This document shows positions 2,968 to 64,000 of a DNA stretch of 64,000 bases, piece by piece. A model generated the notes under the pieces. The model worked only from the letters and a program-made list of their open reading frames with translations, was not told where the DNA came from and made no database searches. Numbering within the stretch: the stretch's first letter is position 1; each line of letters begins with the position of its first letter. The stretch covers positions 23,684,001 to 23,748,000 of the forward strand of contig OX597823.1 of assembly GCA_951406725.2 (NCBI GenBank), given 5' to 3'. This DNA is from Octopus vulgaris. Taxonomy: Eukaryota. Both the position numbers and the translations under genes were made by a program.

Positions 2968-3198
2968 CTGACACCCCTTTGAAGCTTAAGAAAGTTAGCG
3001 TACCACAGAAGGATACTTTACAACAGCTTAAACAGAAGACCTTAACTGAGTGTAATGAAGCTTGTCAACAATATGAAGGATGTAATTCTTATGAGTACAA
3101 TGAGAAGGATAAACTGTGTGGTCTAAGCAATGTGACACAATTGACTAGTGAACTTAAACCCAACATTGGAAATTGGGATGTTTATCTCACTAGCCCAG
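2968..3198 (+). CDS. Exon A1: PAN/Apple domain type A (231 nt)
   Basis: Acceptor tttccccag|CT, donor CCAG|gtcagt. [14 protein letters not shown]...[28 protein letters not shown] has the C-x3-C-x5-C-x11-C PAN core. Confidence 0.92.
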
Positions 3199-4624
3199 GT
3201 CAGTAGAGTATTTCTATTTTATTTATGTGTTCTTATGTCTGTGTGTATTTACATATATCTGCATCTGTGGGAATATTATATATATATATATATACATACA
3301 TACACATGTGGTCTGATCAATAAGTATCTGGACTGTTCCCATAGTAACAAAGCTAAAGCATGCAGAGTAAAGCCATTTGTCAAAAATTGACCGTGATATC
3401 AGTTATGTATGTGCACTAAGTTTTAACATTCTAATTCACTTCTACTGTTACAACAGTGCTTGGAAGGATGGCATGTAGCATGTGTTTGTTGCATTGACCA
3501 TGACATAGAAAGTTATCATGGCGATACCTATTTAGAGGCCTGCAGAAAGTTGCATAACATGTATGGAGAGGAGTGTATGAGTGATTCAGATGTTTCCAAG
3601 ATGGCCAAAAAATGTCAATATTGATGAACGTTCTGAGAGACACACAACCGGTAGAACTGAGAAAAACATTGCAGATGTGCATGTAGCTGTGAGGGGAAAT
3701 CATTGCATCACCATCTGTGAGTTATTAAAAGACATGCAGATTAATTATAGTTCAGTTCAGTCTATTATCACTGAAGATTTGGGTATGAGACGTGTGTCTG
3801 CTAAGTTTGTGCCAAAACTGCTTTCAGCCAGCCAGAAAGACATTTGGGTTTCAGTTGCACAAGATCTTGATTGTGTTGAGAACGAGGAAAACTTTTTGAA
3901 CATTTTGTGTAGGTCTCTGGGCAGGCATTGCCAGGCCTTTGGAAAAATTTGATGCAAATTCTCTGCTTAACTTTTTCTGTCATGGTCAATGCGAGTTCAC
4001 ACACTACACACCTTCCTTTCAAGCACTACTGTAAACAGAAGTGAGTTAGAATGCTAAAACTTAGTGCGCATGCACAACAGAGTTCATGGTCAATCTGTGC
4101 CAACTGGCTTTACTCTTCTTGCTTTAGCTTCGTTACTATGGCAACAGTCCAGATACTTTATTGATCAGGCCACGTATATATTTATTGTCAGCAGTTCATA
4201 TATCTGAAAAAGAAGCACACTATATATTGGTAGAGCAGTAATGAATACTTTTTTTAGGAAGTTAAAAGTAATGCCCGATCATAGGCTGATCATTAGTTTC
4301 GCACCTATAAAGTGCTTAACAGTATAGGCAACTTGTTACATTCAAATTGCAGAAGGCATGTGTTCAGCCACTTGAGGTCATGCACCTTCAGACATTTGAG
4401 TCTGAGGAATTGCCTATACTGCTAGGTACTTTATAGGTGCGAAGTCAATGGTCACTCTATGACCAGCTATAACATAACTTCCTAAAAAATTATTTTTCAA
4501 TTACCAAGGCCTATTCCCCATAGGAGGAGGTAGCCACAAGACATTCACCAGACATTCCATTTATTTCCCAGCTCAAAAGAGGTGAGCCCCATCCTATGCT
4601 CGGGTCAAGGCATAGAAAAGCAAC

Positions 4625-4655
<31 letters not shown>

Positions 4656-5001
4656 CCTAAAATATATATTTAGGTTGTAAAATTGTGAATTAGCCATCCA
4701 TATTATATATGTGTATATATATGTGAGTATATCACTGGTGGTGGTGTAACACACCATACTAATCATATTTGTTGGGCATGTGGAAGAGAGTGTAATTCGG
4801 CAGGGGGACTTAAACGACATGCAAAGGTACATGAAGCCCAGTTACAACTACAGCCGGCTATTACCGGTAAAGGTTTGAATTGCCAATTCTGTACAAGACA
4901 TTGTAGATCTTTAGCTGGGCTAAAAAGTCACATTCGATCACAGCACCAATAACAGTTAAGCTTCGTGCAATGGCCATACTCAATAACGAGGGGCAGCCAT
5001 C

Positions 5002-5036
<35 letters not shown>

Positions 5037-5064
5037 TATATATATACACACACATATATATACA

Positions 5065-5140
<76 letters not shown>

Positions 5141-6731
5141 AACATATATATTTCATTTTTGGATTTGGCTTGCAAGATTCTTTATATGAGTTCATGTGTT
5201 GAAGCATATTCTCTTGTCTGGGGAGAGTCATTTTCCTTTTGTGCCTTATGATTTAACACACTCGCTGGTAAAATTTGCACTTATTTCTTATTTTTATTTT
5301 CCTAAAATTTTTGTTGCGTCTTGCAACCTTTTCAATAGTCTTGACACTGTTTGTTATTTACACTGCATTCCTTTTTGTTTGTTTGTGCGCATATGTGTGG
5401 TTCAGTGTGTGTGTGTGTGTGTGTGTGTGCCTATGCATGCATGTACATATGTATGTATGTGTGTATGTATGTATGCTAGTGTGTGTAAGTATATATGTGT
5501 GTGTATGCATATGTTTATATGTATGTGTGTGTGCATCTGTATGTATGTATTCTGCATATTCATGTTCTTGCATGTCCGTGTTTGTGTATTTTCTGTGCAT
5601 GTTTGTGTGTGAGCATGTGTTTGTATATGTATGCACCTCTGTCTCCTTGTGTGTGCATGTCTGTGTGTGTGTGTGTGTGTTTTGCAACTATGTACCGTGT
5701 TTGTGTGTATGGATGTGGATCTCTATATGTGTGGATCTGTGTTTTCATATGTGTCCTTGTGTGTGTATATATGGTTATGTGTTTCAGACTCCATTTGCGT
5801 ATGTGTGCTTGTCTATTCTTATAATCTATGTACCTATCCATCTGTATGTTGAACTGTTTATTTTCATATCCATATACTTACATACAAAACAAAAAATGCG
5901 CATACACACCCACTCACACCCACACACACATACATACGTCTATCTACATAACAGTCCACTAACTATTCTACTCTACTGTGACTGTAATGAAATTCATAAG
6001 ATTGCTTGTGAGTTGAAGCACAGTCATTACATCTTGGAAGTATTTATTGTCGAAGCAAGTAAAACTATAGATTGAAAGAGAAAGTTCAAGTCATCTACCG
6101 TGTTAAATTGCATCATTTTTGTAACAGCTTCATAAAAGCCCTGATATTATTCATCTCATAGAGTGGACTGATTATTTTCAGCATACTTCAAATTACTGTT
6201 CTCTATTTTAATATGAGCATCTGCAGTGTATTGTAGCATGAGTTGCCTATGTTTCATTTCAGTGTTAAAGCTGCATTCTCACCCTTGAAAACAGTAACTC
6301 TAGAAGTCAGTGGCAGAAAGCATATAATTATCTGCTCTTATCTGAAATACATCTTCCCCTCAAGGAAATAACACATAATACGAAGGACCATATAAGCAGT
6401 GCACCTGATGAGTCCTTTATAGGCAACCATCGTCTCTATGGCTATCAGCTTATTTCTGATTCTACTGGACAAATGAAATAAACTAGTATTTTCATGTGTT
6501 ATGCAATCATCATGCTATTTAGTGACAGTCGTGTTCCACAGCTGACACAGTTATCAGTTGCGGAACGCGACTGTCACTACATATACCCGATGAATGTGTA
6601 ATACATGGAAATACTAATTTATTTCAATATTGCAGACTTGCAAAAATTGCGAGTAACAAAACATGAAAATCAGACTCAGTAGGAATTTCATTGATCAATA
6701 TATTCTTCTGTACACAGTTATACAAATTTGG

Positions 6732-6804
<73 letters not shown>

Positions 6805-9800
6805 TGCATGTATATATCAGAGTGTTTATACATAGTGTGTGAAAATTCCTTCAAACTTTTCTTCAATGACATGCATTCTAAATTCAACACACAATCACAC
6901 ACACTACCACACACACACACATGCATAAGCTATTTTAAAACATGATATTTTTGAGTCATTACTATTTTAAAATTAACTTTGTCATTCATGTTTTAGAAAA
7001 TAATAATAGCAGACACTCAGTTTACTCAAGAAATTAAGGGGAGAAAACTGTAACTGTGGCTTTAAAAATTGAGCAAAGTGATTTAGAGATTGCTCAGTTT
7101 TTAAAAGTCGCCAGATCTTTTGTTTACAAAATTTGCAATGAGGTAGAAGCCTCAGATGGATTAGTATCACTAGTATTGAAGCAGGAAAAACATTCCCAAT
7201 CCTCTAATGCCATCAGAATATCTAATTTCATTCAACAAGTTAAACAAATCATTGAAAAAAATCCATGTGACCAATTGCAATACATCTCCATGTGCTAGGA
7301 GGGACAATCTGAAACGTTGTCCTTTAAGACATCCACTACGAGTCTTATATTATAAGGAGAAGTCAATTCATATCAGAAAAAACAAAAGAAACTTGTCTGA
7401 TCAATTCTAACAAAGTTAAAACCCAAAAGAACATAACATGATTTGATTTTTCTCAAACGAGTAAAACTTTGACTGGGACCAGAAAATTAACTGAAAAAAT
7501 GACAGATGGTTATTTTCAGAAATCTGAAGTTTCAACAGTCATGCACACAAATTTCCTGCAACTGTCATGGCTTTTGGCAATGTCAGAAATGAAGGATATG
7601 TGATACCTCCTCACTTCTTTCCACAAGGCTTTAGAATTAACTCTGCTGGTTACATTAAGGTTCTGGAAACAGTTGTCAAGCACTAGATAGACAGAGTACA
7701 CAATGAAAGACTGTACATGTTTCAGTAGGTTCTTTGCACCATCACATAATGCTCAAGAAATCCAGAATTGGATGACTGACAATTTTTGTAACTATGTAAT
7801 TCTTAAAATTTGGCCTCGAAACTCACCAGACCTCAATCCATTGGCCTACTATGTGTGGAGTATTGTTGAAAGAGGGGGCAATCAACATCCCTTTAAAACC
7901 AAGGATTCTTTGAAAGCCACTTATCAGAGTAATGTCTGATATTAACCAGCACCATGTGGACCGTTCAGGTTTTGCCAGAAAGCAGTTATTGATGCTGAAG
8001 GTGACTACATTGAATAAAATTATAAGGAAGATGAACTAGTTTATATGTACAAATTTTTCATCAGTAAAGTTGTTTTCTAGTATTCTGTGTATATGCACCC
8101 TATATACACAGATATGTGTGTGAGTGTATACATACATAAATACATATATATGCCTATTTCTGTCTGTGTACATGTTTCTTCAGTGTGTTTCAGTCAATAT
8201 CTTTATTCAAAATTTGTTATTATCTCCTCATCCTTACACTTCTCCTAACATATAATTACCATTGATACCATTTTCTCTGTATCATTTCCAGTGTTTTCCA
8301 AAGTGGACTGTGGACCACCAAAAGACATTACTGGTGCTTCAAAGTCCTATAAAACCACTACCTATAAATCTAAAGTAATCTACACTTGTCCAGAAGGAGA
8401 AAAATTAAAATCGATATGTGAAGACGACAATAAATGGACCCCAGTAGCATCTTCTTGTAAAGGTAATAAAAATAGGCTCTCACTTGTTGCTTGTGTCTAT
8501 GTAATTTTGTTTTGATTTTTGTGTTATGTATTTTTGTCAGAGGAAGAATTGCTGTGTCCATGACAATTTCCATTGTGATAGTGGTTGTTGGAAAAGAGAA
8601 AAGTTATCCTCAGAGCAAAGAGCACTTCAAATGCTTGCAACATTGCAACAGATTGGGCTTTGTGAGTGTTACCCAAGGGCCAGATAATGCAATTAAATTG
8701 GGAGATGATTCATGTGTGCCAAACAAGCACAAGAACTGTGGAATCTTGTACCTTCCTGAAATTTCTATGGAGTTGCTATCAACCAAATTTCATGCACACG
8801 GCTCAGATGTGAAGCAAATTCTTAAGCATGCAGACAGAACTCAACCCAATATCCCATTGTTGTTAAGCAAAACTATTATGTCCACAGTTATACCTCACTT
8901 CATCTTGACATTTTTTCTCTAATTTCTCACTTGACCTTTCCCATCCATACTTTGTGTCATCATCTAGAATTCTGTATACAGTAATCCCTTGCCATATTGC
9001 AGTACACCTATTGTGATTCACCTATTGCAGTTCACCTATCATGGTTTATAATTTAAGCTTATGTCAATTCCTCTGTGGTGTTGTTTTGTATTTATAATAA
9101 AACAAATATATACAAATTATAAAGTAATAAAAAAGAATATGCAATATAGTACTGTTTTTACTTCACAGATTTTCACCTATCTCAGGGGGTTTAGGAATGT
9201 AACATCCACGATAGTTGAGGGACTACTGTAATACAATGCACTGAGTTATTCTTTAATATAATTCAGAATTCAGGATGCTGTACATTTCAGATGAGATAGA
9301 AAAGGACCAAGAAATCTGATGCTTTGCTGCACTCAAGAAAATGTATCAACCATAACAGATGTTTTAAAAATGCAAATGAAAAATAAACTGAAGTTAGAAG
9401 TCCCTGTCTTCTGACCTTTGAACCTCATCCACTGCACAACCTCTATCACTACAGCTACCAGACAGAGGAAATTTGGCTTCTTTACTTAGTTAAAGGAGGG
9501 TGTGGGGCAATCATCATGATGGACGGATTTGTCACACACACAACAGTCACAGTTTGACATATCTTTACAAATCAGCAATGCATGGACAATGAACATGTGC
9601 ATGTAAAATGGTTTTGATGCACTGTGCACATCTTGGACAACACTGATGGCACTTCCATGACTGTAGATTTTACCTTGAACCAATTGACTTCCAAGAACTC
9701 CAGAAAGTTGTCCATCTTAGTCCCTGATCATAATCCTTGACCAAAAAGATCTTTGAAACAAACTTGGCAATTCATTTTCTTCAATGCACTGAGCATCCTT

Positions 9801-12800
9801 GAGAATGGTACTACTCATTTTCTTCAGTTCACTGAGAATTCCTGAGTATTTTGGTACACTAGCTTATAACAGATTGCTAGAGTGGAACACCCACTAATTC
9901 TATTGCCGATGTCAGGTTTCATTCTGTGTACTTTATTGTTTGTAATCCTTAGGATTACATTAGATAATATGGCCATCCTTTTTTATGATAGTTGGATGGA
10001 ATTGGGGGAAATTTTGTTGATAATTCTAACATGTTGGGTGCTTATATTACAAGGTCCTCCTCAGTGGCTGGCCACAGTAAATATTGAGCTTTAATATTCC
10101 AGGTTAACAGACCTGACACAACTCCTCCCTGCTCCTCATCCACACTATCGTCATCATCATCATAATCTTCATCATCACAATCATCAATCATCATCATCAT
10201 CATCACGTTTAATTATATTGCTACCTGGTCAAGGTGAATGTGGTGGACAACACTTAATCTGATGTTAATATGTCTATATATTGCAGTCAGACAATGTACC
10301 AACAGGTTGAATGGTGATTGGCAGTGATGAAATAGAGGAGGTAAAGGAATATGTCTACCTGGGACAGGAAGTGAATATGTGGCGAGATATTGAAAAGGAG
10401 ATCTCACGGAGAGTAAGGACCGGATGGAAGGCGTTTAATGGCATAAGTGATGTGCTCAAGGGAAGGTTGGACAGGACCACCCACACCAACCTCATCAACA
10501 GTACTGAATGCCCAATATTTGGTACTCCATGTGATCTTAGCAAGCAAGTTTTGCCAACTTACACGGATGTACTAAATGTGTTTTATTTCAGTGAGAAAAA
10601 GATAAGAATGTTGTTAAAGATCCTTCAATTATACAAATTGTCAAGATTGTAGCAGAAAAGATAATTCTTCTATGGCAAAAGACATCCATCCCTTGTGTCA
10701 TGACTGAGTTTGTTAAACCGAAAATTTAAAACTTTTATCTTAAGTACCAAGCATTACTAAAATCTGTGAAAAATAGGAAAAAATGTGCCATTGTTTCAAG
10801 CAAAGTGCAATGTGTTTGAAAACAATGCAACAAAAGATCTATTTAACATTTTCTTTAGCAAGTGCAATTCCTTTAACAACTGCAGTTCTATTAGAGACAA
10901 AAACGTACCACAGTGAGAACAAGATTTTTTATAGGATCAATGGACAAATAAAAAATGATCATTGGCGGAATAGATCAAACAGTATCTAAACAACATTCAG
11001 AAGTTGATCAGAAAGAATTAACCAGATCACACTCACCCTTCTACACCAACGAAGGATTCTGAATTGGTAGCATTTTCATCAAGCAGTGAATCTGGAAGTG
11101 GATCAGCAGGTGAAGACGAAGATTTTCCAATTCCATTTTCCATGAAACAAAAAGATGCCAGCAAAAATGTAAATTCAAAAACATCAATAAAATTAATGAA
11201 ATTCCCAGAACTAGCTTCTGCCTGTGACTGCACTGGTGTGTCAGACGGTGCTGAAGATCGGTCATCAGCAACTTAAATGCAGACTAAAAACATGCAACAG
11301 TTACTCTTCCTGGTTCATACATTTTTAGAGTTCTTAACATACTGTATTTTCCGGTCTATAAAACACATTGGGGGAATATTTTGGTCTTATCCACACATAG
11401 AGCACACCAGTGTTTAAAAGATCTATAGAGCTATGGGTCCACAGCTAGCTTTTTTGTTGCTGACCTGTATGTAGTTTCAAAATGCCTTAATTTAGAACTA
11501 TGAGATGTATTGTTATTGTTATATCTTACTAAAATCAACAACAAACACATTTTGTCAACATTAAAGTTTTTATTAGATTAAAAATAACTTTGTTTTCTTT
11601 TGGGTACCAATGTACTGTAGCCGTAGTCTTTCATGTTGTTCACCGACCAAACCTTTCTTTTGAAAAAATCAGTGGAATCATTCGATCTCCATACACAAAT
11701 CATTTTCCTCCTGAAACTTATAAAAAATGCACACATTAGGTGCACACTAAATTTCCCAGGTAAAAAATAGCGGCTTATACACTGAAAAATATGGTACACA
11801 TTGGTGGTTAACTGCTTAGGGGTAATTTTCCTAGGAGGTTGTTGCCCTTGGCGGGTTATTGTCTATGGTGGGTAAATGTCGTAGACTGGGATTACTTTCT
11901 GCATGGAAAACAAGTAGTAAAGTGGCTGCTTATTGACCCAAGATATTATGATTAATTAAAATTTTTACCCTCGGTAGTTGATAAAATCATTATGATTATG
12001 ACTTATTCTGGTCATGAGATTCAGAAAAGACAGCTCTGTAAAGTTTGAATTGTTTTGTTTATTTGCAATTCACTAAAAGTATACTTTTGCATAAATAAAA
12101 ATTTCTTAGCTTGTTACATTACATTTTTAGTTCCCATTTTCTCTATATTTACAAGGTGGTATCAAAAAGTTCCAACAGATGGCAGCACATGGTTGCCTGC
12201 ACTGTAAGACCTAGCAGCGATCTTCATGAGGCAGTGTTCTGAATGACATTGCTGTGTTTAATTTGTAAATTGTAAAATTTGAGTTTTGAGATCGTGTGTA
12301 TGCTGTAGCCTACAATTTAGTCATAGACAAGTAAAAATTTTGTTTTAAATTTGGGAAGTCTGCTACAGAGACATTGAGCATGTTTTGGCAAGCTTATGGT
12401 GATGAGGCAATGGGTCATATGTCTTGTTTTGGGTGGCACTAGTGCATTAAAAGCGAAAGAATATCCCTGGAAAATGATGAGCAATCTGGAAGACCCGCAG
12501 CAAACATCACCCCTGGGAATGTGATACTGTGGTTCAAGAATTCATTCCCCAGGGTCAGACAGTGAATTGAGAGTTCTACTGTGACATTTTGAAGCATTTG
12601 AGGGAGGACATTCAACAAAAGCAACTGGATCTGTGGAGCACAAAGAATTGGATTCTACACAACAACAACGCATCCTGTCACTGAGCTCTCCTCACTCATG
12701 AGTTTCTAACCAAAAACAGCACCCACCCTATTCACCAGATTTAGCACCTGCAAGCATCCATCTCCTCCCCAAGATGAAAATGCAGCATAAAGTTGCCATT

Positions 12801-24800: not shown

Positions 24801-24881
24801 AAGAACAGGAAAATGATCCTTGCAGCATAATCTCAAGTATACTCACCAAATTGACTCACTTATCAGAAGACAATCTTCACA

Positions 24882-50303: not shown

Positions 50304-50341
<38 letters not shown>

Positions 50342-54533: not shown

Positions 54534-54589
<56 letters not shown>

Positions 54590-54595
54590 ATATAT

Positions 54596-54649
<54 letters not shown>

Positions 54650-57600
54650 CTATGTATATGTACAGAGGTGGGCATTGTTAATTGAAAAATTAACTTCATT
54701 CATCATGAAACCATTAATTCTTTGCAAATTTAACAGAAGTTAACTTCAATCCATTAAAATTAGCTTTCATTGTAAAAGGCACATCTACAGTTTAATACCT
54801 CACTGACTGTGTTGCTTCATAACTTCCAGAGAAATAGAAACTTTCTAATGAAACTTAATTGCTTATAACCTGTAGATTGGGTGGTGAAGATTTGTTGGAA
54901 ACAAATTTTTTTAGGGGTTGGAGAGAGGAGTTTCAGAAAATTCACAGGATCCGACATTTTCCCGTTCATCACTTCCTGGAAAATAGGATGTTTTAACAAA
55001 ATTTTATAGAAATACATTTTAAACGGTGTAGATTACAATTGCAAAGAAATATATTGGTAAAACTTTTGAAAGAGGCTGGAGGGATGGGTGTAATTTCTGG
55101 AAAATGGAGTTTCGAATCAGACAGCCCATACAAGTTGGAAGTTCTCCGTTTTGACGGGGAATTCTTCAAATGTTTTTCACCAAAGTTTTCAGAATGATGG
55201 CAGGCATCTTTTCATGGAAAAGAAGAAAAAGATTTAAAAAATTTATTTCCTTTCATTCCCACCACTCCAGTCTGAAATGATTTTGGTCATTTTTCTTTTT
55301 CACTACACACTTGAAACCTGTGAGAGAAACATTTTAAGTTTAAAAGAGAATTGTAAATAATTTGAGAGGAGAAAGAGTAATTTAAGGTAGATCAAGCTGT
55401 TGTTTCTAGTACATCCTAAAACCCCCCTCCTCGTTTCTTTCTTCCCCACACATCTATTGATATTTTTCTGCCCATAAACAAATCTTATGGAATGATGATG
55501 TCAAAGTAACACAATTGTAGTCCCAACCAAGTGAAGCCGTGCTATATGTGTAAGGGCAAAAAACACCTAAAATCATCTTTAGTGTTCATGTTAATCTATC
55601 AAAAGTAATGCTTATTTGTTTGTTATTCTGAATTATTCAGGTTCAAGAGGGTTGTTCTCAATATTTGTTTATAACTTTGTACATGCAGATTTGAAATTTT
55701 GTCATGCAGATTTGAAATATGGTTTATAATTATGTAAATTTAGCTGATCTTGCTGAGCAAATTTGACTTTTATGTGCAGTTAAAATTAATTAACAGGTGT
55801 AAAAGAAATAGCATTATGGATAAACACTAGAATTGAAATTCTTAATGCATCTTACCTGTTTGATTTGTTACTAAAATGATACCAGATTGCAACTGACAAA
55901 ATTTTTGCCGCTTTTAAAGATGAGGTACTTATATTTGAATCAATTGAAATACAGATATAATCAGTACAAGATTTTATGCTTTCAGGAAATATTTCATACC
56001 TTATTGGGGAATAATTTTTTCCTCACATTTTTTAGGGTACATTGAATGTATCTGACCTCCAAACGTGCTGCAAGTCACTTTTTTCTGGAACAGAGAAGAG
56101 GGAAGGGTAGTGGGGACCATGTTATTTTGCATCCTTTCAATGAAAGTGACATCGAAGTCATGCATAAACAGCTTTTTTTTCCAGAAAAGGAAAGATTTTG
56201 CTGCTCTTTCTAGCGTACCTTCTACCATGCTACACCGAAATATTTACCAACCTTTTTCCTTCCATTTGCTTTTTACACTTTATGGAAGTTGGACCTCAGC
56301 GAGGTCACAGATCAAGTGGATAGACATCAATCACTGTTCCCTCTTGACAGAATAAAGAAATTTCCTGCTGTCTTTGCAAGCAGCAAGCTGATGGTTTTGG
56401 TTTCAAATCCAAGCAGGGCTAAATGATGTTCTACACATCTTTTATAATAATAAGTGGCCTATATCAGGGTTGAAAGGATGGTACATACAATATTAAATAT
56501 GCTAAAATAATCTGAAAACATTAGAAACTTTTAAATGTTCACTGGTTCTTTTGAAATTTTTGGGTTAATGGACTTGAGTTAACAGAAGTCAAATGTAGTG
56601 GAAGTTAATTTGTCTGATAAAGATTTTCAAAGTTACCTTGAAAGTTAAATTGCTAACTTTGTTAATTAACAATTCATGGATTAACAGACTAACACCCAGT
56701 TCTGTATATATATATTGCACCAGCATTACTTGAGGTAGTGATGACACACCAAATATATATACAGCACGAGACTGAACGTTAATTTTATACCAGTGTTTTT
56801 GTAAAACCATCGCTACATTTGATCATACACATTGTTTATGTCAACAGGATAATTTTTAAGTTAATGAGCCAATAGAACCTCATTCAAATTTGGCTACTTG
56901 CTGGTTTCTCTCCCTTTCTCGCTGTCATAATTATAGTATCGATTACTATATCTAGTGGTAATATAAACTAAATGTTTCAAAGCCATGATTATTTTTAATC
57001 TCTGCTGAATCTCCCATCAGTGAGATGTGCATATCAAATGCAATGAAGATATCTTTGCAGGTTGTTTTGGAAAAACTGCATCCAGTAACTATCTCCATTA
57101 TTTTGTTGAGTGCTTAGATGCTGCCCAAGCACCCTACACCTTCTATGGCTTCTGGCAGGGAACCTGCTGGATATGTCCCAGAAAGGTAACAGTTATGCTG
57201 CAGTAGGTCACTGTTATATTGTCAACAAAAGCACCATAAGCTACATAAAGTAAAACAAGGTGGCAAAAAAGGCTATCATAGCAGTAATTTTCTGTGGAAG
57301 TGTCAAAAGATATCGATAGTGAGAAATAAGAACTTTGTCGGGATGGAATCTACCTTGGCATTGTGGCTGCAAGAAGAAAAGCATCCCCTTGAGCGGTAAG
57401 ATCATCAGTGAGAAAGCGTGGAAATTATACCAGCAGTTCAACAGAGAAGACAGAGCAGAAGATACTGAAGAACTGTGACCAAGACCATTGGCAGCATTAG
57501 AGCTCAAAGATTTTCAAACCATCAAGGTATGGTTTGACCGTTCCCAGAAATGGTTTAAAGTAAAGTGTTTCCCTGAAAAGAGAGAGACCATCAGCCAACA

Positions 57601-59082
57601 AAAACACCACTAAGAAGTAACATTAGACCTTCAAGTAATCATCAGGAACAAGAGTTACAAGCCAGATCGAGTTTCCAGTGCAGATGAGACTGGCTTGTTC
57701 TGGAAGAAGATGCCTTCTAGAATGTACATCATGAAGGACGAAGCCAGAGCCCTAGCATTTAAGGCACAGAAGGACAGAGTTATGCAAATTATGTGTGGCA
57801 ATGCTGCTGGCTTCATAATGAAACCAGGACTTATCAAAAAGTTTGTAAACCCAAGGCCTTGAAAAATGAGAATAAAAACCTGCTGCCTGTCCACTGGATG
57901 CACAGCCCAAGGCCCAGTTTACCAAAAGTCTAACTTTGAATTGGTTCCACAAATGCTTCATCTCTGAAGCCAAGGAATACCTCCAAAATTTTGCATGCAA
58001 TTCAAGGTGTTGCTTGTTATGGATAATGCTGGTGGTCACTCTTTGGATTTGAATTATGAGGGAGTTCAAGTAGCGTTCCTCCCTGCCAACACCACCTCTC
58101 ATCAAGCCTATGGATCAAGGATGATCTGTGTTTTCCACACTCTTTACACACAGAACACTCTCCAACAATGGATTCGGACAAGAATTTCTAGTTAAAGGAG
58201 TATTGGTGTAACATTTTGATTGCAGTGTGACTGTCAGTCATCCACATTGCTCTTAAAGACATGGAAAATGAAAATCTCATCTCATGCTGGAAGAAAGTGT
58301 GGCCAGAGTGTGTCGAGGACTACGAGGGCTTCTCACCTGAAGGTATTCAACATGAGATTGTGAACAATGTGGTGAAACTGGCAAAGGTACCTAGTGGTGA
58401 CAGTTTTGCTGACATCACAGAAGAGGAGGTCAACGACCTCATCAATGCCTACTCTGAAACCCTGACAGACAAAGATTTATTGGAGTTAATGAAATCTACC
58501 AGTGAGGAGGAAGTAGAAGTGCCAGATACAGAGGAAGAGGAAGAGGAAGATGGGCCTGCCAATTGAACATCTTCTGACCTATTAAAAACAGCAAAGGAAT
58601 TGCAAGTGAAGGCAGAATCATGGGATCTCTATATTATTCAGTCTCTCCAATTTAAAAATACCTTTGATGCTTCTATAGAGATATATAAAACTCTCCTGAA
58701 AACCATGAAGAAACAACAACAGCAACTTCCCATCACAATGTTCCTCAAGGCCACAAAGAAAGCCTTGCACAAAGATACAACATCCCCCTAAAACACCTGA
58801 AGAAGAGGTGTCTCATGAAGAGTTTTAAATCTTCTTTGCTGTGCAGTCATTAAATTCATTATTTTCATCATCATCGTCTTAAATCAATATCATTCATTAT
58901 TGGTGAGTAACAATTAATTTTACTTTGTTTAAAAAAAATTATTATTAAATATATATATATATTTAAAATATTTTACGTTATATTTTGATGTTTATAAGCA
59001 TTTTTATGGAGCGCATACAATATTCACAGTTTCACAATTCGTGGGTGCTCTAGGAACATAAACCCCACGAATACTGGGAGAA

Positions 59083-59118
<36 letters not shown>

Positions 59119-59680
59119 AGTAGTTCATGTATCCAAAAAAGAAGCACAAACTCAAAACTTACAGTAGTAATGTATATATTTTAGGAACTCAAAAGTTATG
59201 GCTGTTCATAGGGTGACTTGTTTTCGCACCTATAAAGTACTTAGGAGTAGAAGTGACTAGCCACACTCAAATGGCTGAAGGTGTGTATTCAGGTACCTTA
59301 GCTCCTTCGCCTTTAGCCACTTCAGTCAGAAGAGTTGCCTATGCTACTAAGCACTTTAAGGTGCAAAACCAATGAAAGAGAGAGAGAGGAAGAAAGAAAG
59401 AGAGACTAAGATTTATTAATATATACAGTATTTAAATGTGAGCTAGTTTTAATTTCAAGCTGATATCCAAATACTCTGTAAATTTGAAGTTAGTTACCTC
59501 TCACTGGACAGAGGACATACTTTGTTGATGCTACTAATAATGGAACTATAAATTGTATTTATATATATTTGTGTGGGTGTTTGGATTTGTGCATGTGTTT
59601 GCATACACACACATATTTTTACATATGCGTATATATATAAATACATATGCACAAAGATATGTGTATATCTATACATGTAG

Positions 59681-59721
<41 letters not shown>

Positions 59722-62700
59722 GTCATTGCATAAATAATGCTCTCTTTTTTCATACTTCTTTTATATTTCAAAATTAAGAGAAAGTTCTTTTTCTATCTAA
59801 AATATACTCTCCTTCAGCTTGTAAATTTGCAAGGCCCGTCTTCCAAAATTCACTTTTCTGTGACAAAAGATACTCCTCCAGTACTGTTCTCACCTCATCC
59901 ACAGAATGTATAACTTTTCCATCCAAATGACTTTGAAGATTTTGGATTAACTGATCATCAGATTGGGTAATGTCTGGTGAATACGGTGGCTGGGGCATCA
60001 TTTCCCATTCAAGCTGCTCCAACCTTTGGAATGTCATCCTTATAGTATGTGGGTGAACATTTCCCTGATGGAAGAACACCTTTCGTCTTGAAATCCAAAA
60101 CCATTGTTTTCCATCTAGCGCTGACTTAAGCCGCTCAATCTGTTCATAGAAGTTCTCCTTTGTCATCATTTGCTTTGGGTTTAAAAGTTTAAAGTGGACT
60201 AAACCTTTCATATCACGCCAAACATAACAACATTTTATGTGGGTGAAGACCTTGTTTAGCTTAGGGTACTGGTGTTTCTCCTTTCCCTATCCCTGGTCTT
60301 CAGCACTTAACATTTTTATAGATAACCCTTTTCTTGTCTCCAGTCATATTCAGTCCAAAGAAGGTTCATTCGTGAGGCATGACAGCAAACAGCACACTTT
60401 TACTCTCTGAGCGCAATTACTCAGAAAGTTTGTGTAGCACCCATTGACCCAATTTGTTGAATTTTCTAATGGCCCGCAAGTATCACTGACTGGCTGAAGA
60501 ACCAAATCCAAATTTATTTGCTTGTTCCTCAACTGTTACAATGGGATTTTGTTCCATCATGGTTTGCAGGATGTCCCCATATGTAACTGTAATTATTGGG
60601 GCCCTGGGATATGTAACACACTCTCTAAATACCAATCTTGCAAAATTAGGCTTGTGAAAACCAGGAAGGAGAAAGCCAATTTGAAGACTACAGATCCAAT
60701 CCATCATTGGAACAGTAACAATCTGTAAAACTTTCCCGAAGTTTATCGTTTAAATATATATCAACATGTCTAAAAATGCAAGTATATGCATGAGAATACA
60801 TGCATAAAACAAAACATATGAATCTGCACATATACATACATACAAACAAAAATACTCGGTTGTTAATGTTGAAATTCCAATGAAGGAGTCTTAGATCCAA
60901 GTCAGAAACTGGTTCTTTCTCTGTTGGCAAGAAATCTTGAAATAAAACTTAACAATGACATACATAAATATATATATATGCCTATTTCTGTCTGTGTACA
61001 TGCTTCTTCAGTGTGTTTCAGTCAATATCTTTATTCTAAATTTGTCATTATCTCCCCATCCTTACACTTCTCCTAACATATAATTACCATTGATACCGTT
61101 TTCTCTGTATCATTTCCAGTGTTTTCCAAAGTGGATTGTGGACCACCAAAAGACATTGCTAGTGCTTCAAAGTCCTATAAAAGCACTACCTATAAATCTC
61201 AAGTAATCTACACTTGTCCAGAAGGAGAAACATTAAAATCGAGATGTGAAGACGACAATAAATGGACTCCAGTACCATCTACCTGTAAAGGTAATGTAAA
61301 GAGGCTCTCTCTTGTTGTTTCCAACTACATTATTTTTTTTTGTGTGTGTGTTAAGTGTTTTTGTCAGAGGAAGAAATGCTGTATCCATGCCAATTTCCAT
61401 TGTGAATTTCACTGTTGGGAAAGATAGAAGTTAATGTCAGCAGAAACCTCTTCAAATGCTTGCAAGAGTGTCGGCTTTGTGAGTGTTACTCAAAGGGAGG
61501 ATGATTCGTGTTGTGCCAAACAAGCACAGGAAGAATTGAATCTTGTCCCTACCTGAAATTTCCATGGAGTTTTCATCAACTAAATTTCATGTGCAAGGCT
61601 TAGATGTGAAGCAAATTCTTAAGCACACAGATAGAACCCTGCGCAATATTCCATTGTTTTTAAGCAAACTATTATGACCACAGCTATAACTCAGCTCGTG
61701 TAATTTTTTTCTATAATTTCTCACATGACTTTTCTCATCCATATTTTGTGTCATCATCTATTACTCTGTACAATACAATGCACTGAGTTCTTCTTTACTA
61801 GAATTCAGCAATCCTCTGAAACAGACTTCCGATGCTCAAGTGATATTCCATCCAGTCCATAATCCTAAATTATAACAACACAAATAATAATAATGATTCT
61901 TTCTAATTTGGGAAAAGAAAGCCAATAATTTTCTATATGTTGTAGATTAAGTTCCATTTTGTTGTTTTCGTATAGATTATTGGTTTGAGGATGTATCCAT
62001 CGGTTACAATATAATTAAGTTGACTAAATATGTTTGGGTGTGTGATATGTATATGTCTTCCAATTAAACGAAGTCCTTTTTGCATCCTGCTGTTGGTAGA
62101 ATGAAAAGAAAAGTCAAATTCATTTTTGTGGAGAAATGTAAAAAAGATCAGATACAAAGACAGTTTCAACGAATTCTCTTTTTATTTCAAGGATATATGC
62201 TATTACATGTAAATACATCAGGAGTAATCTCCCTTCGTCAGCGAAAGTAACTGGAAGAGTATCGTATTGTAGAATGTTATTTCTAGGTTTTCGTCTAAAG
62301 GTTTGTCCATAAAGAAGTGAAAGGAATCATATTGCTTATCAAGTCCATTGAAACTACACTTGAGAAAGAGTTTAGCTTTATGACTTATGGTCATTATTGA
62401 GAAGGATAACGTCTTATGTCATTAGTAGAAGAATGTCAAAATTCAACAAGGAGTGTATGTGAGTTTCAGTGACATAGCTTCCCAAAGGCAAACTATCCAC
62501 TTATTAAAATCAGAAAAAATATCATGGTTTTTATAACTTCCCATGGAAATTTCTAGAAGCGTTCTGAAATATGATTTAAAATAATTTAGGCTAAAATGGA
62601 GAATGATTTTGGATGAAATCTATAGCGGCTGTCGTTGGCTGTTCAAGAGCTTGTTATTAAATGGAAAAACAGTATGAATCACCATAAGACACTTTTGTGT

Positions 62701-64000
62701 GTAAATATATTGATTATTCTGTGTTCACCTTTTGTGGTGGAAGCCTGTAGTATGATACAAAAACATGTCTGTTTACATAGAAAGAAAGTTTTGATTTTTG
62801 CTTTTGCACTGAAAGAAGTAACATATAACATTTGTATTATATTATGTTTGCATGTGTAGAATGAGAACAGTCATTTTGAGAATGTGTTTGTGATAAAGTA
62901 TCTTCATTTACGAACCGCATATCTTGTGTCGAGGTGAATACACATGTGAGTCGCACGTGGAATATTGTGTGCAGAGCAACAGAGAAGACATTTGTCTTTG
63001 ACCAAAACCTGGCAGGAACTTAGATCTTCTACTGTGTAGCTCAGAACGAGGCTGGTGTCTCAGAACAAGGCTAGTGTATCAAAGCAAGGGTAGTTGTCTC
63101 ATCGATATATTCGTCTGCTGTGTAGGTCAACTTACATATTACCACGTAATATGTAGATTTGCTACAAATATTTTTAGCCAATGAGAGAACTCGTAGATTT
63201 TGTTAAGTTGTAGATTTTGTAAGCCACCAAATAAAAAGCCTTTACTACAAATCGATGCCATTTAGTGAGTATCATCAACTCCAGTTCTTCACTAATATTT
63301 TATGCTTTTGACCTCTGCAAGAATGAAAGGCAAAATTGATACTGGCTGGATTTAAACTGAATACATGAAATGCTTGAATACAAATCTTAAAGCATTTCTT
63401 TCAATTCTGACACCAACTTGTGTAGTTTTCCACTCAAAATGAAAGTGAATTTGTATTTGGTTTGCAGGGCAAAATGTTACATAATCAGTAAAGTAATGTC
63501 TTGCAGTGACTAGCCATATATAGTTACCTTCTTTTATATTCTGGATTCAAAGACCATCCGGATATATTCACCTTTCATTATTCAAAGGTTGATAAAATTA
63601 GGCCTAACCAAGTACTGAGTTTCATTTATTCATATTCATTCTGAATGCAAAATGTGTGGCTTTGCATTTGTATTAGAAACCATTTTCATAAATACTGTTT
63701 TTATCCACAATAATTATAATTATTCCTGTTGCTAAAGGTGATGCATTTGCAGAATCCGAGAACATCAGATAAAATGTGTGGTGGTATTTGTTTTGGCACT
63801 TCAGCTGCTAATTCCAATTCCTACTGATGTTAATTTTGCTATTGCTGGGCCAATAAATTAAAATAGCAGTCAAGCATAGAGGCCATATTTTGTTGATTAA
63901 CTCATACCTCAAAATTTTGTCCTTTCTAAGTTAGAGATTATTATTATTGTTATTCTTTTTGTCTTTTACATTCATCTAAACCTTACTTGAATTCCAGTTG
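2968..64000 (+). CDS. Internal part of a large multi-exon gene encoding tandem PAN/Apple and Sushi/CCP domains (likely extracellular); start and stop lie outside the window
   Basis: 15 complete AG..GT-bounded exons, all phase 1-1 and multiples of 3 in length. Joined in order they give 3141 nt with no stop (junction codons GTG,GTC,CCA,GGT,GAT,TCT,GTC,GTC,CCC,GTT,GAT,GAT,TCT,GTG). Cys patterns are conserved while introns are full of decayed TEs. Confidence 0.9.
3307..4174 (+). mobile_element. Rearranged mariner-family element with ~200-bp inverted ends
   Basis: Mariner HTH/linker residues ([25 protein letters not shown]). 3307-3512 is the reverse complement of ~3968-4174. The right arm encodes the transposase N-terminus on the minus strand ([13 protein letters not shown]). 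TA follows at 4175. Confidence 0.8.
4244..4494. repeat. Foldback hairpin of two inverted, decayed hammerhead-bearing units; duplicated at ~59170-59375
   Basis: ttttttaggaagtta pairs with taacttcctaaaaaa, and ttcgcacctataaagt with actttataggtgcgaa. At 4398-4457: GAGT-CTGAGGA-stem II-GAAG-TCAATGG-TC-ACTC. Confidence 0.7.
4730..5005 (+). mobile_element. Probable RTE-type LINE 3' end encoding two C2H2 zinc fingers
   Basis: 4770-4952 reads [21 protein letters not shown]...[23 protein letters not shown], followed by a short 3' UTR and an (AT)n tract. No upstream acceptor or start is evident. Confidence 0.6.
5004..5800. repeat. (AT)n/(AC)n and degenerate (GT)n/(GTAT)n low-complexity tracts
   Basis: Read directly from the sequence. 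Source of the spurious YI/CV/HT ORFs. Confidence 0.9.
6960..8095 (+). mobile_element. Decayed Tc1/mariner-superfamily transposon
   Basis: Frameshifted pieces: [16 protein letters not shown] (HTH), [29 protein letters not shown]. Boundaries approximate. Confidence 0.75.
8292..8462 (+). CDS. Exon B1: Sushi/CCP domain (171 nt)
   Basis: Acceptor catttccag|TG, donor AAAG|gtaata. VDCGPPKDI...[29 protein letters not shown] has 4 Cys and the conserved Trp. Confidence 0.92.
8979..9228. mobile_element. Tigger/pogo-like MITE
   Basis: TIRs CAGTAATCCCT / AGGGACTACTG, with TA on both sides. Absent from the paralogous intron near 61770. Confidence 0.8.
10255..10505 (+). mobile_element. RTE-clade LINE RT-thumb fragment
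   Basis: [30 protein letters not shown]. Confidence 0.7.
10506..11280 (+). mobile_element. Degenerate coding-like fragment, probably an unclassified DNA transposon
   Basis: [21 protein letters not shown] and downstream frameshifted Cys-containing pieces, with no splice structure. Family not identified. Confidence 0.35.
11342..11794. mobile_element. TA-flanked MITE (pogo/Tc1-mariner type)
   Basis: Imperfect TIRs CTGTATTTTCCGGTCTATAA / TTATACACTGAAAAATATGG, with TA on both sides. Confidence 0.6.
12152..12931 (+). mobile_element. Internally deleted mariner relic, same family as 40588-41822
   Basis: TIR CAAGGTGGTATCAAAAAGTT and a PYSPDLAP-coding segment (ccacctattcaccagatttagcacct). Confidence 0.75.
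12935..13390 (+). mobile_element. Two old tandem SINE relics just upstream of exon C1; repeated before C2, C3, C4 and C5
   Basis: Degenerate match to the 2100-2320 SINE (cagaatcattag..caaaatg..ttcaaatc..tttgctctt). Paralogues at ~22310-22760, 35260-35670, 48040-48530 and 63470-63950. Confidence 0.55.
13443..13679 (+). CDS. Exon C1: PAN/Apple domain type C (237 nt)
   Basis: Acceptor aatttcag|TC, donor GAAC|gtaatt. [28 protein letters not shown]...DYYQR. Confidence 0.9.
14900..17187 (-). mobile_element. Deleted LTR retrotransposon (Gypsy-like pol order RT, RNase H, integrase)
   Basis: RT pieces RLGFGLSS and CIDDILV. RNase [23 protein letters not shown]. Integrase H..H..C..C. Direct repeats ending 15063 and 17187 look like LTR edges. 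Left boundary approximate. Confidence 0.75.
17751..17984 (+). CDS. Exon A2: PAN/Apple domain type A (234 nt)
   Basis: Acceptor tttctccag|CA, donor CCAG|gtcagt. [28 protein letters not shown]...WDVYIVNP. Confidence 0.92.
18143..18177 (+). ncRNA. Minimal Penelope-type hammerhead ribozyme motif with one stem III mismatch
   Basis: GTTT-CTGATGA-AGAG TTCCG CTC-GAAAC-ATT-AAAC. Stem I is GTTT/AAAC. Confidence 0.6.
18290..19490 (-). mobile_element. Two adjacent SINE copies with (GAT)n tails and internal ~61-62-bp tandem repeats
   Basis: Shared core ggctggatgcccttcctaacgccaaccactcc and repeated ggcaaacggccacgaacggatggtgcttttacg. Same family at ~27150-27668, 29505-29703, 39370-39550, 42640-42845, 44925-45140 and 46665-46850. 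Confidence 0.75.
19600..20290 (+). mobile_element. Degenerate RLE-type LINE 3' fragment
   Basis: [27 protein letters not shown] and HNTPDI pieces. Homologous to 37330-38075. Confidence 0.65.
20590..20760 (+). CDS. Exon B2: Sushi/CCP domain (171 nt)
   Basis: Acceptor caatatcag|GT, donor AAAG|gtaaca. [11 protein letters not shown]...[30 protein letters not shown]. Confidence 0.9.
22803..23042 (+). CDS. Exon C2: PAN/Apple domain type C (240 nt)
   Basis: Acceptor aactctag|AT, donor AAAT|gtaaat. [28 protein letters not shown]. Confidence 0.9.
24885..24965. repeat. (CA)n microsatellite
   Basis: Read directly from the sequence. Confidence 0.95.
25174..26471 (+). mobile_element. Mariner relic with a nested Penelope-like fragment (~25270-25490)
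   Basis: TIRs CCAGGTTGAGT / ACCCAGCCTGG with TA flanks, and a [13 protein letters not shown] motif near 26184. A decayed minus-strand hammerhead lies at 25321-25360. Confidence 0.7.
26815..27045 (+). CDS. Exon A3: PAN/Apple domain type A (231 nt); absent from the ORF track
   Basis: Acceptor tttttttcag|CT, donor CCAG|gtcagt. Hand translation [14 protein letters not shown]...[32 protein letters not shown]...WDVYIIKP. Confidence 0.92.
28243..28445 (+). mobile_element. Helitron-like non-autonomous 5' end
   Basis: TCTCTATATATATAAAA start, a (GTCT)n microsatellite, then aaccaatttcattcaaatttt. This layout is typical of such elements. Confidence 0.45.
28450..29230 (+). mobile_element. Penelope-like element relic (GIY-YIG endonuclease) with an inverted segment
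   Basis: [42 protein letters not shown]. 28450-28549 is the reverse complement of 28891-28991. Confidence 0.8.
29406..30885. repeat. Very long (TA)n/(TATG)n microsatellite complex interrupted by SINE pieces
   Basis: Read directly from the sequence. Confidence 0.95.
31007..31115 (-). ncRNA. Antisense copy of the same type I hammerhead ribozyme
   Basis: Reverse complement of 31569-31677, with the core intact. Confidence 0.8.
31569..31677 (+). ncRNA. Type I hammerhead ribozyme with an intact core; predicted cleavage after GUA at 31671
   Basis: TCTTTA-CTGATGA-AGTGT...ACACC-GAAA-CGATGCATCG-TA-TAAAGA. Stem I is TCTTTA/TAAAGA, stem II is GTGT/ACAC with an ATGGTA/TACCAT extension, and stem III is the palindrome ACGATGCATCGT. 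Confidence 0.8.
31934..32550 (-). mobile_element. Helitron-like non-autonomous element 3' end
   Basis: Minus strand ends CACGGGCAACACCAGGTAACTCTGCTAG-T, a GC-rich hairpin relic followed by CTAG. Far boundary uncertain. Confidence 0.45.
32900..33835 (+). mobile_element. Tigger/pogo transposase pseudogene fragment
   Basis: [43 protein letters not shown] and [14 protein letters not shown]. Confidence 0.85.
33925..34151 (-). mobile_element. tRNA-derived SINE
   Basis: Minus-strand B-box GAGTTCAAATTCC and central gttgactttgcctttcatcctttc. Confidence 0.8.
34580..34631 (-). ncRNA. Penelope-type minimal hammerhead ribozyme motif
   Basis: Minus strand GTCT-CTGATGA-AGTGATATT..AATATCCTA-GAAA-CAGCTG-TA-AGAC. 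Stem III is the palindrome ACAGCTGT; the base of stem II is imperfect. Confidence 0.65.
34987..35157 (+). CDS. Exon B3: Sushi/CCP domain (171 nt)
   Basis: Acceptor cacttccag|TC, donor AAAG|gtaatg. [12 protein letters not shown]...[29 protein letters not shown]. Confidence 0.9.
35718..35957 (+). CDS. Exon C3: PAN/Apple domain type C (240 nt), very Lys-rich
   Basis: Acceptor aatttcag|TC, donor AAAC|gtaatt. [28 protein letters not shown]. Confidence 0.9.
37330..38075 (+). mobile_element. Degenerate RLE-type LINE 3' fragment
   Basis: [33 protein letters not shown] and KHNKPDIVV. Confidence 0.7.
38292..38525 (+). CDS. Exon A4: PAN/Apple domain type A (234 nt)
   Basis: Acceptor ttcttctag|CC, donor CCTG|gtcagt. 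[28 protein letters not shown]. Confidence 0.92.
40588..41822 (+). mobile_element. Near full-length mariner relic (~1.24 kb)
   Basis: TIRs TGAGGTGATATCAAAAAGTT / AACTTTTTGATACCACCTTG followed by TA. ITSDES and PYSPDLTP pieces, many stops. Confidence 0.85.
41900..42070 (+). CDS. Exon B4: Sushi/CCP domain (171 nt)
   Basis: Acceptor caattccag|TT, donor GAAG|gtaatg. [11 protein letters not shown]...[29 protein letters not shown]. Confidence 0.9.
44423..44593 (+). CDS. Exon B5: Sushi/CCP domain (171 nt)
   Basis: Acceptor caattacag|AT, donor AAAG|gtaatg. [11 protein letters not shown]...[30 protein letters not shown]. Confidence 0.9.
48579..48815 (+). CDS. Exon C4: PAN/Apple domain type C (237 nt)
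   Basis: Acceptor gactctag|AT, donor AAAT|gtaatt. [28 protein letters not shown]; closest to C2. Confidence 0.9.
49330..50190 (-). mobile_element. Degenerate mariner-like relic
   Basis: Minus-strand pieces resemble a mariner N-terminus and the catalytic region ([11 protein letters not shown]). Heavily decayed, boundaries approximate. Confidence 0.55.
50520..52925 (+). mobile_element. Degenerate Tx1/L1-type LINE (APE plus start of RT), interrupted by a solo LTR
   Basis: APE motif [18 protein letters not shown]-proximal [12 protein letters not shown] and ENF*PTTLLN. Confidence 0.7.
51102..51995. mobile_element. Solo LTR (894 bp)
   Basis: TG...CA ends with a 9-bp inverted repeat TGTAGTGGA/TCCACTACA, and a 4-bp TSD CATA at 51098-51101 and 51996-51999. 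Confidence 0.8.
53749..53979 (+). CDS. Exon A5: PAN/Apple domain type A (231 nt), near-copy of A1
   Basis: Acceptor ttttcccag|CT, donor CCAG|gtcagt. 11 nt differences from A1 by manual alignment. Confidence 0.92.
54097..59088 (+). mobile_element. Tigger/pogo transposon relic (transposase pseudogene ~57280-58790) with nested insertions
   Basis: [50 protein letters not shown] and [11 protein letters not shown]. Subterminal ttcgtggg repeats at both ends. Left boundary approximate. Confidence 0.75.
54663..56704. mobile_element. Possible hAT-like element nested in the Tigger relic
   Basis: CAGAGGTGGGCA / CACCCAGTTCTG degenerate ends, with subterminal ttaacttc / gaagttaa repeats. Confidence 0.4.
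59718..60800 (-). mobile_element. Mariner transposase relic
   Basis: ORF 59774-60211: [32 protein letters not shown]. End TTGGGTCATTGCATAAATAATGC abuts (TA)n. Confidence 0.85.
61120..61290 (+). CDS. Exon B6: Sushi/CCP domain (171 nt), near-copy of B1
   Basis: Acceptor catttccag|TG, donor AAAG|gtaatg. 11 nt differences from B1 by manual alignment. Confidence 0.92.
61960..63130 (-). mobile_element. Possible highly decayed Penelope-like relic with a hammerhead remnant
   Basis: Minus strand CTGACGA-AGGGAG...GAAACTGTC at ~62158-62245, with weak endonuclease-like coding remnants upstream. Confidence 0.35.
63998..64000 (+). CDS. First bases of predicted exon C5 (paralogue of C1), cut by the window edge
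   Basis: 63470-63997 aligns with the intron before C1 (12930-13442) and ends ...cttgaattccag|TTG at the equivalent acceptor. Confidence 0.65.

Follow-up and report, generated by a model that had tools for sequence, protein, structure and literature searches.

Drosophila Dumpy, a giant extracellular chain of ~23,000 aa composed of small disulfide modules, carries a fixed higher-order repeat that has grown by unequal crossing over. Its modules are of the EGF-DPY type, and it also has a ZP domain and a membrane anchor. Titin, with roughly 360 exons, is likewise organised in super-repeats. Arrays of another kind are those of arthropod Dscam1 and the clustered protocadherins, where hundreds of paralogous exons lie between constant ends, and where like exons are grouped for exclusive choice or each variable exon has its own promoter. 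The PAN fold with its four cysteines occurs in the N domain of HGF, the PAN domain of plasminogen, the apple discs of factor XI, SML-2 and MIC4, where each protease, growth factor or adhesin carries between one and six copies of it. Among cephalopod proteins, GON-Abd-1 of Abdopus aculeatus (UniProt R4G2C1, 465 aa) consists of a signal peptide, one unit of PAN-C, PAN-A and Sushi, and a C-terminal GON domain, a layout to which GON-SepT-1/2 of squid and GON-Sep-2 of cuttlefish are related. At the upper end of known protein sizes, the accessible part of a recent preprint gives PKZILLA-1 a length of 45,212 aa, ~25% larger than titin, and reports that it had escaped annotation (bioRxiv 10.1101/2024.01.29.577497).

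The Octopus vulgaris locus described here has traits of each of these systems. Titin and PKZILLA-1 are of the same size class but are intracellular and larger, whereas the octopus protein is predicted to be secreted and disulfide-rich. Its PAN domains have the four-cysteine fold of HGF, plasminogen, factor XI, SML-2 and MIC4; unlike in HGF, plasminogen or MIC4, there are 210 of them, alternating with Sushi domains. It shares the order of parts of GON-Abd-1, in 105 units and 24,352 aa rather than in one unit. In contrast to Dumpy, it is built of PAN-PAN-Sushi modules with a GON domain, has no transmembrane stretch, and is encoded with one domain per exon over 1.64 Mb. Features of a Dumpy- or titin-like scaffold are present, namely a predicted open frame of more than 20,000 aa of tandem modules and a higher-order super-repeat, and by analogy the predicted protein would work most like Dumpy. 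Hundreds of paralogous exons between constant ends are found here as in Dscam1 and the protocadherins, but in the octopus the exon classes alternate and there is a single first exon. A Dscam1-type array was rejected, as clusters of same-class exons are absent: PAN-C never follows PAN-C nor PAN-A PAN-A, and only Sushi exons have same-class neighbours (31 of 348 junctions), so this is not a mutually exclusive array. An array of protocadherin type was rejected as well, as far as first exons related to the signal exon are concerned, this exon having one clear homologue in 1.934 Mb, in a small neighbouring gene.

Exons of the window and the gene model around them

The window (the whole stretch of 64,000 nucleotides analysed, positions 1..64000, + strand, C10:23,684,001-23,748,000) lies inside a predicted gene at C10:23,362,495-25,003,050. 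Between positions 2968 and 61290 it holds 15 whole exons (5 PAN-A, 6 Sushi and 4 PAN-C), numbered here by their place in the 349-exon gene model:

2968..3198, +, PAN-A exon 65 of 349, unit 19
8292..8462, +, Sushi exon 66, unit 19
13443..13679, +, PAN-C exon 67, unit 20
17751..17984, +, PAN-A exon 68, unit 20
20590..20760, +, Sushi exon 69, unit 20
22803..23042, +, PAN-C exon 70, unit 21
26815..27045, +, PAN-A exon 71, unit 21
34987..35157, +, Sushi exon 72, unit 21
35718..35957, +, PAN-C exon 73, unit 22
38292..38525, +, PAN-A exon 74, unit 22
41900..42070, +, Sushi exon 75, unit 22, first member of a Sushi pair
44423..44593, +, Sushi exon 76, unit 22, second member of the pair and marker of the four-unit super-repeat
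48579..48815, +, PAN-C exon 77, unit 23
53749..53979, +, PAN-A exon 78, unit 23, 88% identity to exon 65 (four units earlier)
61120..61290, +, Sushi exon 79, unit 23
63998..64000, +, 3 initial bases of PAN-C exon 80, unit 24, the rest lying past the window end

In all 15 the length is divisible by 3, the splice sites are AG (acceptor) and GT (donor), and the phase is 1-1; they sum to 1047 codons. In Pfam scans PAN_1 scored above cut-off in 9/9 PAN exons, and Sushi was matched in 6/6 Sushi exons (E 3.6e-5 to 1.3e-3), 3 of them above cut-off. The last base is always G, C or T, none of the exons starts with AA, AG or GA, and stops arise at 0/105 forward skip junctions among them.

A first-pass annotation of this DNA had described the 15 single-domain exons, all of phase 1-1, and each is present where it was placed, as exons 65-79 of a larger array. 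Its further propositions that skipping creates no stop and that no exon begins with AG, AA or GA hold within the window and break down over the whole gene, where stops arise at 53/58,653 forward junctions and 5/343 repeat exons start with AA or GA. The PAN-Sushi-PAN unit that it proposed has to give way to PAN-C, PAN-A, Sushi, because both the giant gene and its one-unit paralogue begin in this order. It had seen neither signal peptide nor terminal exon in the 64 kb, and both indeed lie outside, 0.32 Mb upstream and 1.26 Mb downstream; the protein, which it put at more than 1047 aa, has 24,352 aa in the present model, so that the earlier size was ~23-fold too low.

Introns of the window also contain transposon remnants (243-1121, 15531-16205 and 59777-60286, all on the - strand), comprising zf-RVT (LINE), RNase H-like and mariner-type transposase fragment sequences. 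An intronic 87-aa open frame at 4689-4949 (+), with two C2H2-like zinc fingers below Pfam cut-offs, is probably a retroelement end. Minisatellites occupy 18457-18756 and 19160-19281, with periods of 61/123 and 64 bases, respectively.

A genome search with one exon per class returned 109, 134 and 113 matches. All but a few (106, 134 and 107) fall within C10 at 23.27-24.99 Mb, plus strand, and are free of internal stops. Mapping of C10 23.174-25.108 Mb (1.934 Mb, zero N) with local profiles gave 107 PAN-C, 107 PAN-A and 134 Sushi matches; 346 of these have AG and GT at homologous positions, and the two others are partial copies. A scan for ATG plus a hydrophobic stretch overlooked both real signal exons. 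The terminal exons of the giant gene are located as follows:

C10:23,362,495-549, signal exon, an ATG exon that with the micro-exon stands just before the first PAN-C
C10:23,363,457-486, micro-exon
C10:24,990,060-25,003,050, four GON exons

The array thus delimited has a signal-peptide exon, a micro-exon, 105 PAN-C, 105 PAN-A and 133 Sushi exons, and a four-exon GON. Spliced in order, the 349 predicted exons amount to 73,059 nt and encode 24,352 aa (2.75 MDa) with zero internal stops, over a span of 1,640,556 bases with a median intron of 4.0 kb and GT-AG ends in 348/348 introns. PAN-C is followed by PAN-A in 105/105 units, and PAN-A by Sushi in 102/105, by PAN-C in 2 and by GON in 1. The predicted protein has a pI of 8.9, 13.9% lysine and 272 N-glycan sequons. 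Its most hydrophobic stretch (peak 19-residue hydropathy 1.49) is a putative N-terminal signal peptide, and a transmembrane stretch is absent; the signal exon shows 85% identity over 53 nt to the first exon of the small gene. At the other end are a Pfam GON match, a stop codon and poly(A) signals (AATAAA). Within the 1.934 Mb, the only full-length homologue of the signal exon, the micro-exon and each GON exon lies in the small gene; beyond these, the terminal exons have two weak matches in the region (38 and 41 bases), a single 38-base signal-exon-like match (E 8e-4) lying inside the array. Therefore, as judged by homology to the known terminal exons, 343 repeat exons stand between one start and one end. 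GON exon 1 has two matches genome-wide, at 23.285 and 24.990 Mb. We regard it as highly probable that the predicted array is one transcription unit with translated exons.

Some details of the locus stand apart. The PAN-A exon of unit 42 (C10:24,093,506-24,093,706, 201 nt) is shortened and divergent with its cysteines kept, and has 88% identity in O. bimaculoides. The shortest intron (132 nt, C10:24,967,915, after exon 341) is in frame and stop-free, and its retention would lengthen unit 104 by 44 residues, placed between its PAN-C and PAN-A domains. Three element copies at C10:23.378, 23.619 and 25.018 Mb, with open frames of 1037-1078 codons and 94-98% alike, look like young LINE insertions; two of them lie on the opposite strand inside introns of the giant gene.

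In public databases the giant gene is present as separate fragment models only, at least 3 in O. vulgaris, 6 in O. bimaculoides and 3 in O. sinensis, and these omit exons of the array. CAI9728790.1 matches 58 exons within 49-124, CAI9728792.1 matches 12 exons within 142-155, and CAI9728796.1 matches 56 exons within 284-345 plus the GON; all three start at an internal methionine and lack a signal peptide. NCBI proteins of O. vulgaris match the exons at 100%. The name ADAMTS9/20/GON-1 attached to CAI9728796.1 was discarded, as metalloprotease and thrombospondin domains are absent from Pfam scans of P0004 and P0027 and the 349-exon model is composed of signal, PAN, Sushi and GON exons only; so was SVEP1, the name on CAI9728790.1, as VWA, EGF and pentraxin domains are absent from the Pfam scan of P0183. 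Among the best 150 representatives, all multi-domain array matches whose source was checked are genome annotations, and no spliced assembly of the array was found. Twenty short single-exon proteins match units at 54-79%, and the 6 that were checked are Logan records. A search of sequencing runs with window positions 20500-23100, a stretch remote from the 3' end, listed no RNA data set, which weighs neither for nor against expression. The accession, name and motif of the giant protein were all unmatched in the accessible part of the proteome supplement of PMC10138644, and the accessible parts of PMC13252362, PMC12607849, PMC12259195, PMC4280546 and bioRxiv 10.64898/2026.04.09.716377 contained no GON protein. 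A literature search, whose coverage lay outside subscription journals (including Ruder et al. 2013), yielded no description of the giant gene. The first-pass annotation had recognised no characterised protein with a repeating PAN-CCP-PAN layout, and none with the layout of the giant protein turned up in these database and literature searches.

Descent and growth of the array

The small gene, at C10:23,269,851-23,294,202, is intact and lies 68 kb upstream of the giant gene on the same strand. It has a signal exon, a micro-exon, PAN-C, PAN-A, Sushi and four GON exons, all homologous to those of the giant gene. On sequence grounds it is the O. vulgaris orthologue of GON-Abd-1, with 76-96% identity in 7/8 matched segments and 65% in one that includes an intron. 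Its public model (CAI9728787.1) is without the signal exon and the PAN-C exon. The sequence around the first exons is common to the small and giant genes, the 3' UTR of the giant gene can be aligned with that of the small gene, and its single GON cassette is intact. The giant gene is a tandem copy of the one-unit GON-Abd-1 gene in which the module was amplified ~100-fold. The GON domains of the two genes are 57.7% identical, and their identity to O. bimaculoides is 85.6% for the giant gene and 92.4% for the small gene, that of the giant gene evolving faster.

By architecture and descent, the giant protein is a member of the cephalopod PAN-PAN-Sushi-GON family, its model showing the signal peptide, the PAN-C/PAN-A/Sushi order, the single C-terminal GON and the lack of a membrane anchor. 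In squid and cuttlefish, those relatives that were found possess a single unit or Sushi-GON only; no long squid forms occur among the best 150 representatives, a further search covering proteins of up to 2000 aa. The limpet proteins Patella P0012 and Lottia P0069 resemble the giant protein in combining PAN with a C-terminal GON, with a Sushi-like stretch before the GON (by alignment or local profile), but are of ~400 aa with one PAN and no repeat array. The annelid Dimorphilus gyrociliatus has separate long PAN arrays without Sushi alternation (P0053, P0060), with 20 PAN domains behind a rhamnose-binding lectin domain.

PAN loci on C13, C18, C3 and C17 belong to other genes. Those that open with the same two-exon PAN pair are the following:

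C13:19.98-20.00 Mb
C13:76.165-76.175 Mb
C13:19.92-19.93 Mb
C18:43.14 Mb

They comprise PAN-PAN-WSC (two loci), a four-PAN protein and a PAN-PAN-VWD zonadhesin-like gene. As the pair thus opens other octopod proteins, it behaves as a single module. On C3, two PAN exons 7.9 kb apart (25,602,680 and 25,610,567) have the same scores, which suggests that one was copied in tandem very recently or duplicated in the assembly.

Clues on the growth of the array come from its introns. The Sushi-to-PAN-C introns are homologous end to end in most of 102 cases, their 5' part matching the post-Sushi intron and their 3' part the micro-exon-to-PAN-C intron, which argues for one founding duplication junction, copied throughout. 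In the tandem copy a single new Sushi-to-PAN-C junction would have arisen and then been propagated ~100 times, latterly in four-unit blocks. Units 18-33 (window included) and 61-82 form four-unit, 13-exon super-repeats with a lag-4 identity of 0.88-0.91 versus 0.64-0.80 at lags 1-3, and the lag-4 mean of the whole array was reached by 0/1000 shuffles. The idea that copy number could vary is borne out to the extent that the array has grown by duplication, as paralogue identities and super-repeats indicate. Conserved intron elements were set aside as a functional signal, being accounted for by descent; the most shared 560-base segment of the Sushi-to-PAN-C intron is without an open frame. Three partial dead exon copies lie on the coding strand, each beside its parent exon and two of them within unit 49:

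C10:24,195,914-24,196,034, dead exon copy
C10:24,207,896-24,207,988, dead exon copy
C10:24,574,973-24,575,024, dead exon copy

Compared as proteins, large parts of the array are collinear among three Octopus species, as far as the available models extend. In O. sinensis, 36/36 domains of XP_036361601 fall on units 52-62 in order, and other models cover units 46-48 (9/9 domains) and 23-25 (5/5). In O. bimaculoides, P0007 matches units 39-42 (11/11 domains) and P0004 units 102-105 (11/12) followed by the GON, with further models for units 87-88 (4/4) and for the greater part of 14-17 and 31-38; identity is 72-92%. In recently duplicated blocks the best cross-species matches are out of order, as lineage-specific turnover would lead one to expect. 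The first-pass proposal of a lineage-specific, secreted, multivalent PAN/Sushi protein is supported at the level of sequence.

Selection on the exons and rival readings of the locus

All 12 core cysteine columns are invariant (100%) across the repeat exons, and stops are absent, whereas ~565 stops and ~398 cysteine losses are expected under neutrality on terminal branches, with branch lengths taken from trees that ignore gene conversion. Omega for the three exon classes is 0.76, 0.79 and 0.71, in each case below 1 (2dL 21-43). The exons are under selection for frame and disulfide cores. In held-out pairs, core sites have omega of 0.2-0.3 and other sites near 1; thus fold and frame are kept and surfaces drift. 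This pattern of a constrained core and a near-neutral rest fits a scaffold more than a specific receptor. A tree-based site mixture prefers a class with omega >1 (2dL 94-173), gene conversion and rate variation lying outside the model, and such a class would fit recognition better than a passive scaffold. When fast sites are chosen in one half of the exons, their omega in the second half is 1.25-1.5; only in Sushi does it exceed 1, and there marginally (2dL 4.1). Positive selection, strong in the tree-based mixture and weak in the held-out pairwise test, is not claimed.

Constraint of this kind bears on whether the locus could consist of duplicated unexpressed exons or falsely duplicated haplotypes, a reading that we hold to be largely refuted and most improbable. 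High omega (0.71-0.79) and whole introns that can still be aligned would fit it, and indicate that the copies are young. However, the absence of stops against the ~565 expected, the zero N in 1.934 Mb, self-matches of at least 1.5 kb that reach at most 97.8% (longest 3.7 kb), the mean paralogue protein identity of only 58, 46 and 58% in the three classes, the collinearity of the array in two other species and the presence of merely 3 dead exon copies on the coding strand all speak against it. Fragmentation of the transcript is a further matter. Several shorter transcripts might be produced through intronic polyadenylation or unrelated internal promoters, with no full-length protein, which seems improbable to us. 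The frame of each exon continues into the intron up to a stop, so that early ends would yield valid secreted proteins, and the annotations of three species split the locus. Nevertheless, no second signal exon was found in the array save the 38-base match, and the only intron segment searched for a recurrent hidden exon contained none. Each of the three O. vulgaris models inspected opens at an internal methionine and has no signal peptide, and the GON cassette, present once, is intact and keeps a 3' UTR that aligns with that of the small gene.

An unlikely reading, which follows the first-pass idea of variation by exon skipping, is that all mRNAs have the signal exon and GON in common but retain different subsets of units, giving many shorter recognition or adhesion proteins that differ in length and surface. 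Several properties of the array would suit it: all repeat exons are of phase 1-1 and junction stops are rare; PAN-C donors are weak, 97/105 being without both -1G and +5G; omega at non-core sites is near or above 1; the PAN pair present in squid GON-SepT-1 is lacking in cuttlefish GON-Sep-2 and can thus be missing as a block; and transcription of the full pre-mRNA would need 9-27 h (3 to 1 kb/min). On the other hand, PAN-C leads to PAN-A without exception and Sushi is the only class with neighbours of its own kind; intron flank identity is 0.66-0.74 versus 0.75-0.80 at fourfold-degenerate sites, and hence gives no hint of additional splicing control elements; many units correspond one-to-one across species; the held-out omega of fast sites is modest; and the PAN-C exon of the small gene shares the weak donor, yet GON-Abd-1 includes that exon. 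Module exons of this sort are usually symmetric in phase (1-1), and free exon interchange is a by-product of this symmetry, inherited from the one-unit paralogue. As to role, the protein might be a salivary (venom-gland) product for prey handling that binds prey surfaces or carries salivary proteins, which we find quite improbable. GON-Abd, GON-Sep and GON-SepT reportedly come from posterior salivary gland transcriptomes, said to be those of Ruder and co-workers (2013), and the tandem paralogue, with its shared first-exon surroundings, is the GON-Abd-1 orthologue. Against such a role, no catalytic or toxin domain scores above cut-off, bar a borderline repeat-summed Pfam match, a 2.75-MDa chain would diffuse poorly, and the predicted PAN-GON relatives in limpets show that the family is not specific to venom. 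A full-length or near-full-length protein is, in our judgement, rather likely to be a real product.

Predicted product and what it would mean

For an A-S-C-A stretch from an octopus relative, the predicted fold has pLDDT 86 and pTM 0.59. The PAN-C fold matches HGF N with Z 12.9 (rmsd 2.3 over 82 residues), HGF N and plasminogen PAN coming first in the fold search (Z 12.5-12.9) and apple and MIC domains at Z ~8-8.7; at the sequence level PAN-C matches HGF N weakly (E 0.0043). In PAN-C, lysines that precede the first cysteine align with the basic strand of HGF N, which binds heparin. Mean net charge is +7.4 for PAN-C, -0.6 for PAN-A and +2.7 for Sushi, and PAN-A is the class richest in sequons (1.29 per exon). 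GON, in its first part, matches the collagen I C-propeptide (E 1.2e-7; COLFI/GON clusters 0.95). The procollagen C-propeptide is a chain-assembly domain, and three of the first four cysteines of the fibrillar collagen C-propeptide are kept in GON. The predicted fold of the whole small paralogue is poor (pLDDT 61, the GON part mostly low), and a fold search with this low-confidence model gave apple and PAN matches and none for GON.

Taken together, PAN-C charge, the HGF N-like fold and the GON/C-propeptide match argue for a bead-chain scaffold. The whole unit would be transcribed and mostly spliced in order, and each domain would fold alone, giving a chain ~1 micrometre long if the domains are of typical size. 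Basic PAN-C domains might bind polyanions with high avidity, PAN-A would bear most of the N-glycans, and GON may join or anchor chain ends. The product would be a secreted, basic, glycosylated bead-chain of ~105 PAN-PAN-Sushi units with many points of attachment to acidic glycans or mucins, cross-linking mucus or matrix polymers. We give an even chance to this single long secreted chain acting as a multivalent scaffold for acidic polymers of mucus or matrix, the partner bound and the tissue being conjectural. That octopuses make a single 2.75-MDa, approximately micrometre-long secreted polypeptide, by an octopus-lineage 100-fold amplification of a small gland protein, with a C-propeptide-like end and missed by the annotations examined for three Octopus species, is put forward tentatively, at slightly below an even chance.

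If true, this would be one of the largest animal proteins, joining a very short list of those of more than 20,000 residues, and secreted; it would exceed Dumpy and MUC16 and be the largest secreted protein known to us. Its ~690 disulfides in 343 four-cysteine domains would bear on the chain-length folding limit of the secretory pathway. The gene model corrects at least 12 fragment models, some misnamed ADAMTS or SVEP1. Should the units instead be skipped into many isoforms, the locus would be a 105-unit combinatorial secreted library, which would be equally notable. The parent gene, the founding intron junction and two duplication generations are still readable, so that one can follow stepwise how a gene the size of titin or Dumpy came into being. 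For the octopus itself, the predicted protein is a candidate octopus-specific biomaterial of mucus, saliva, egg or skin matrix.
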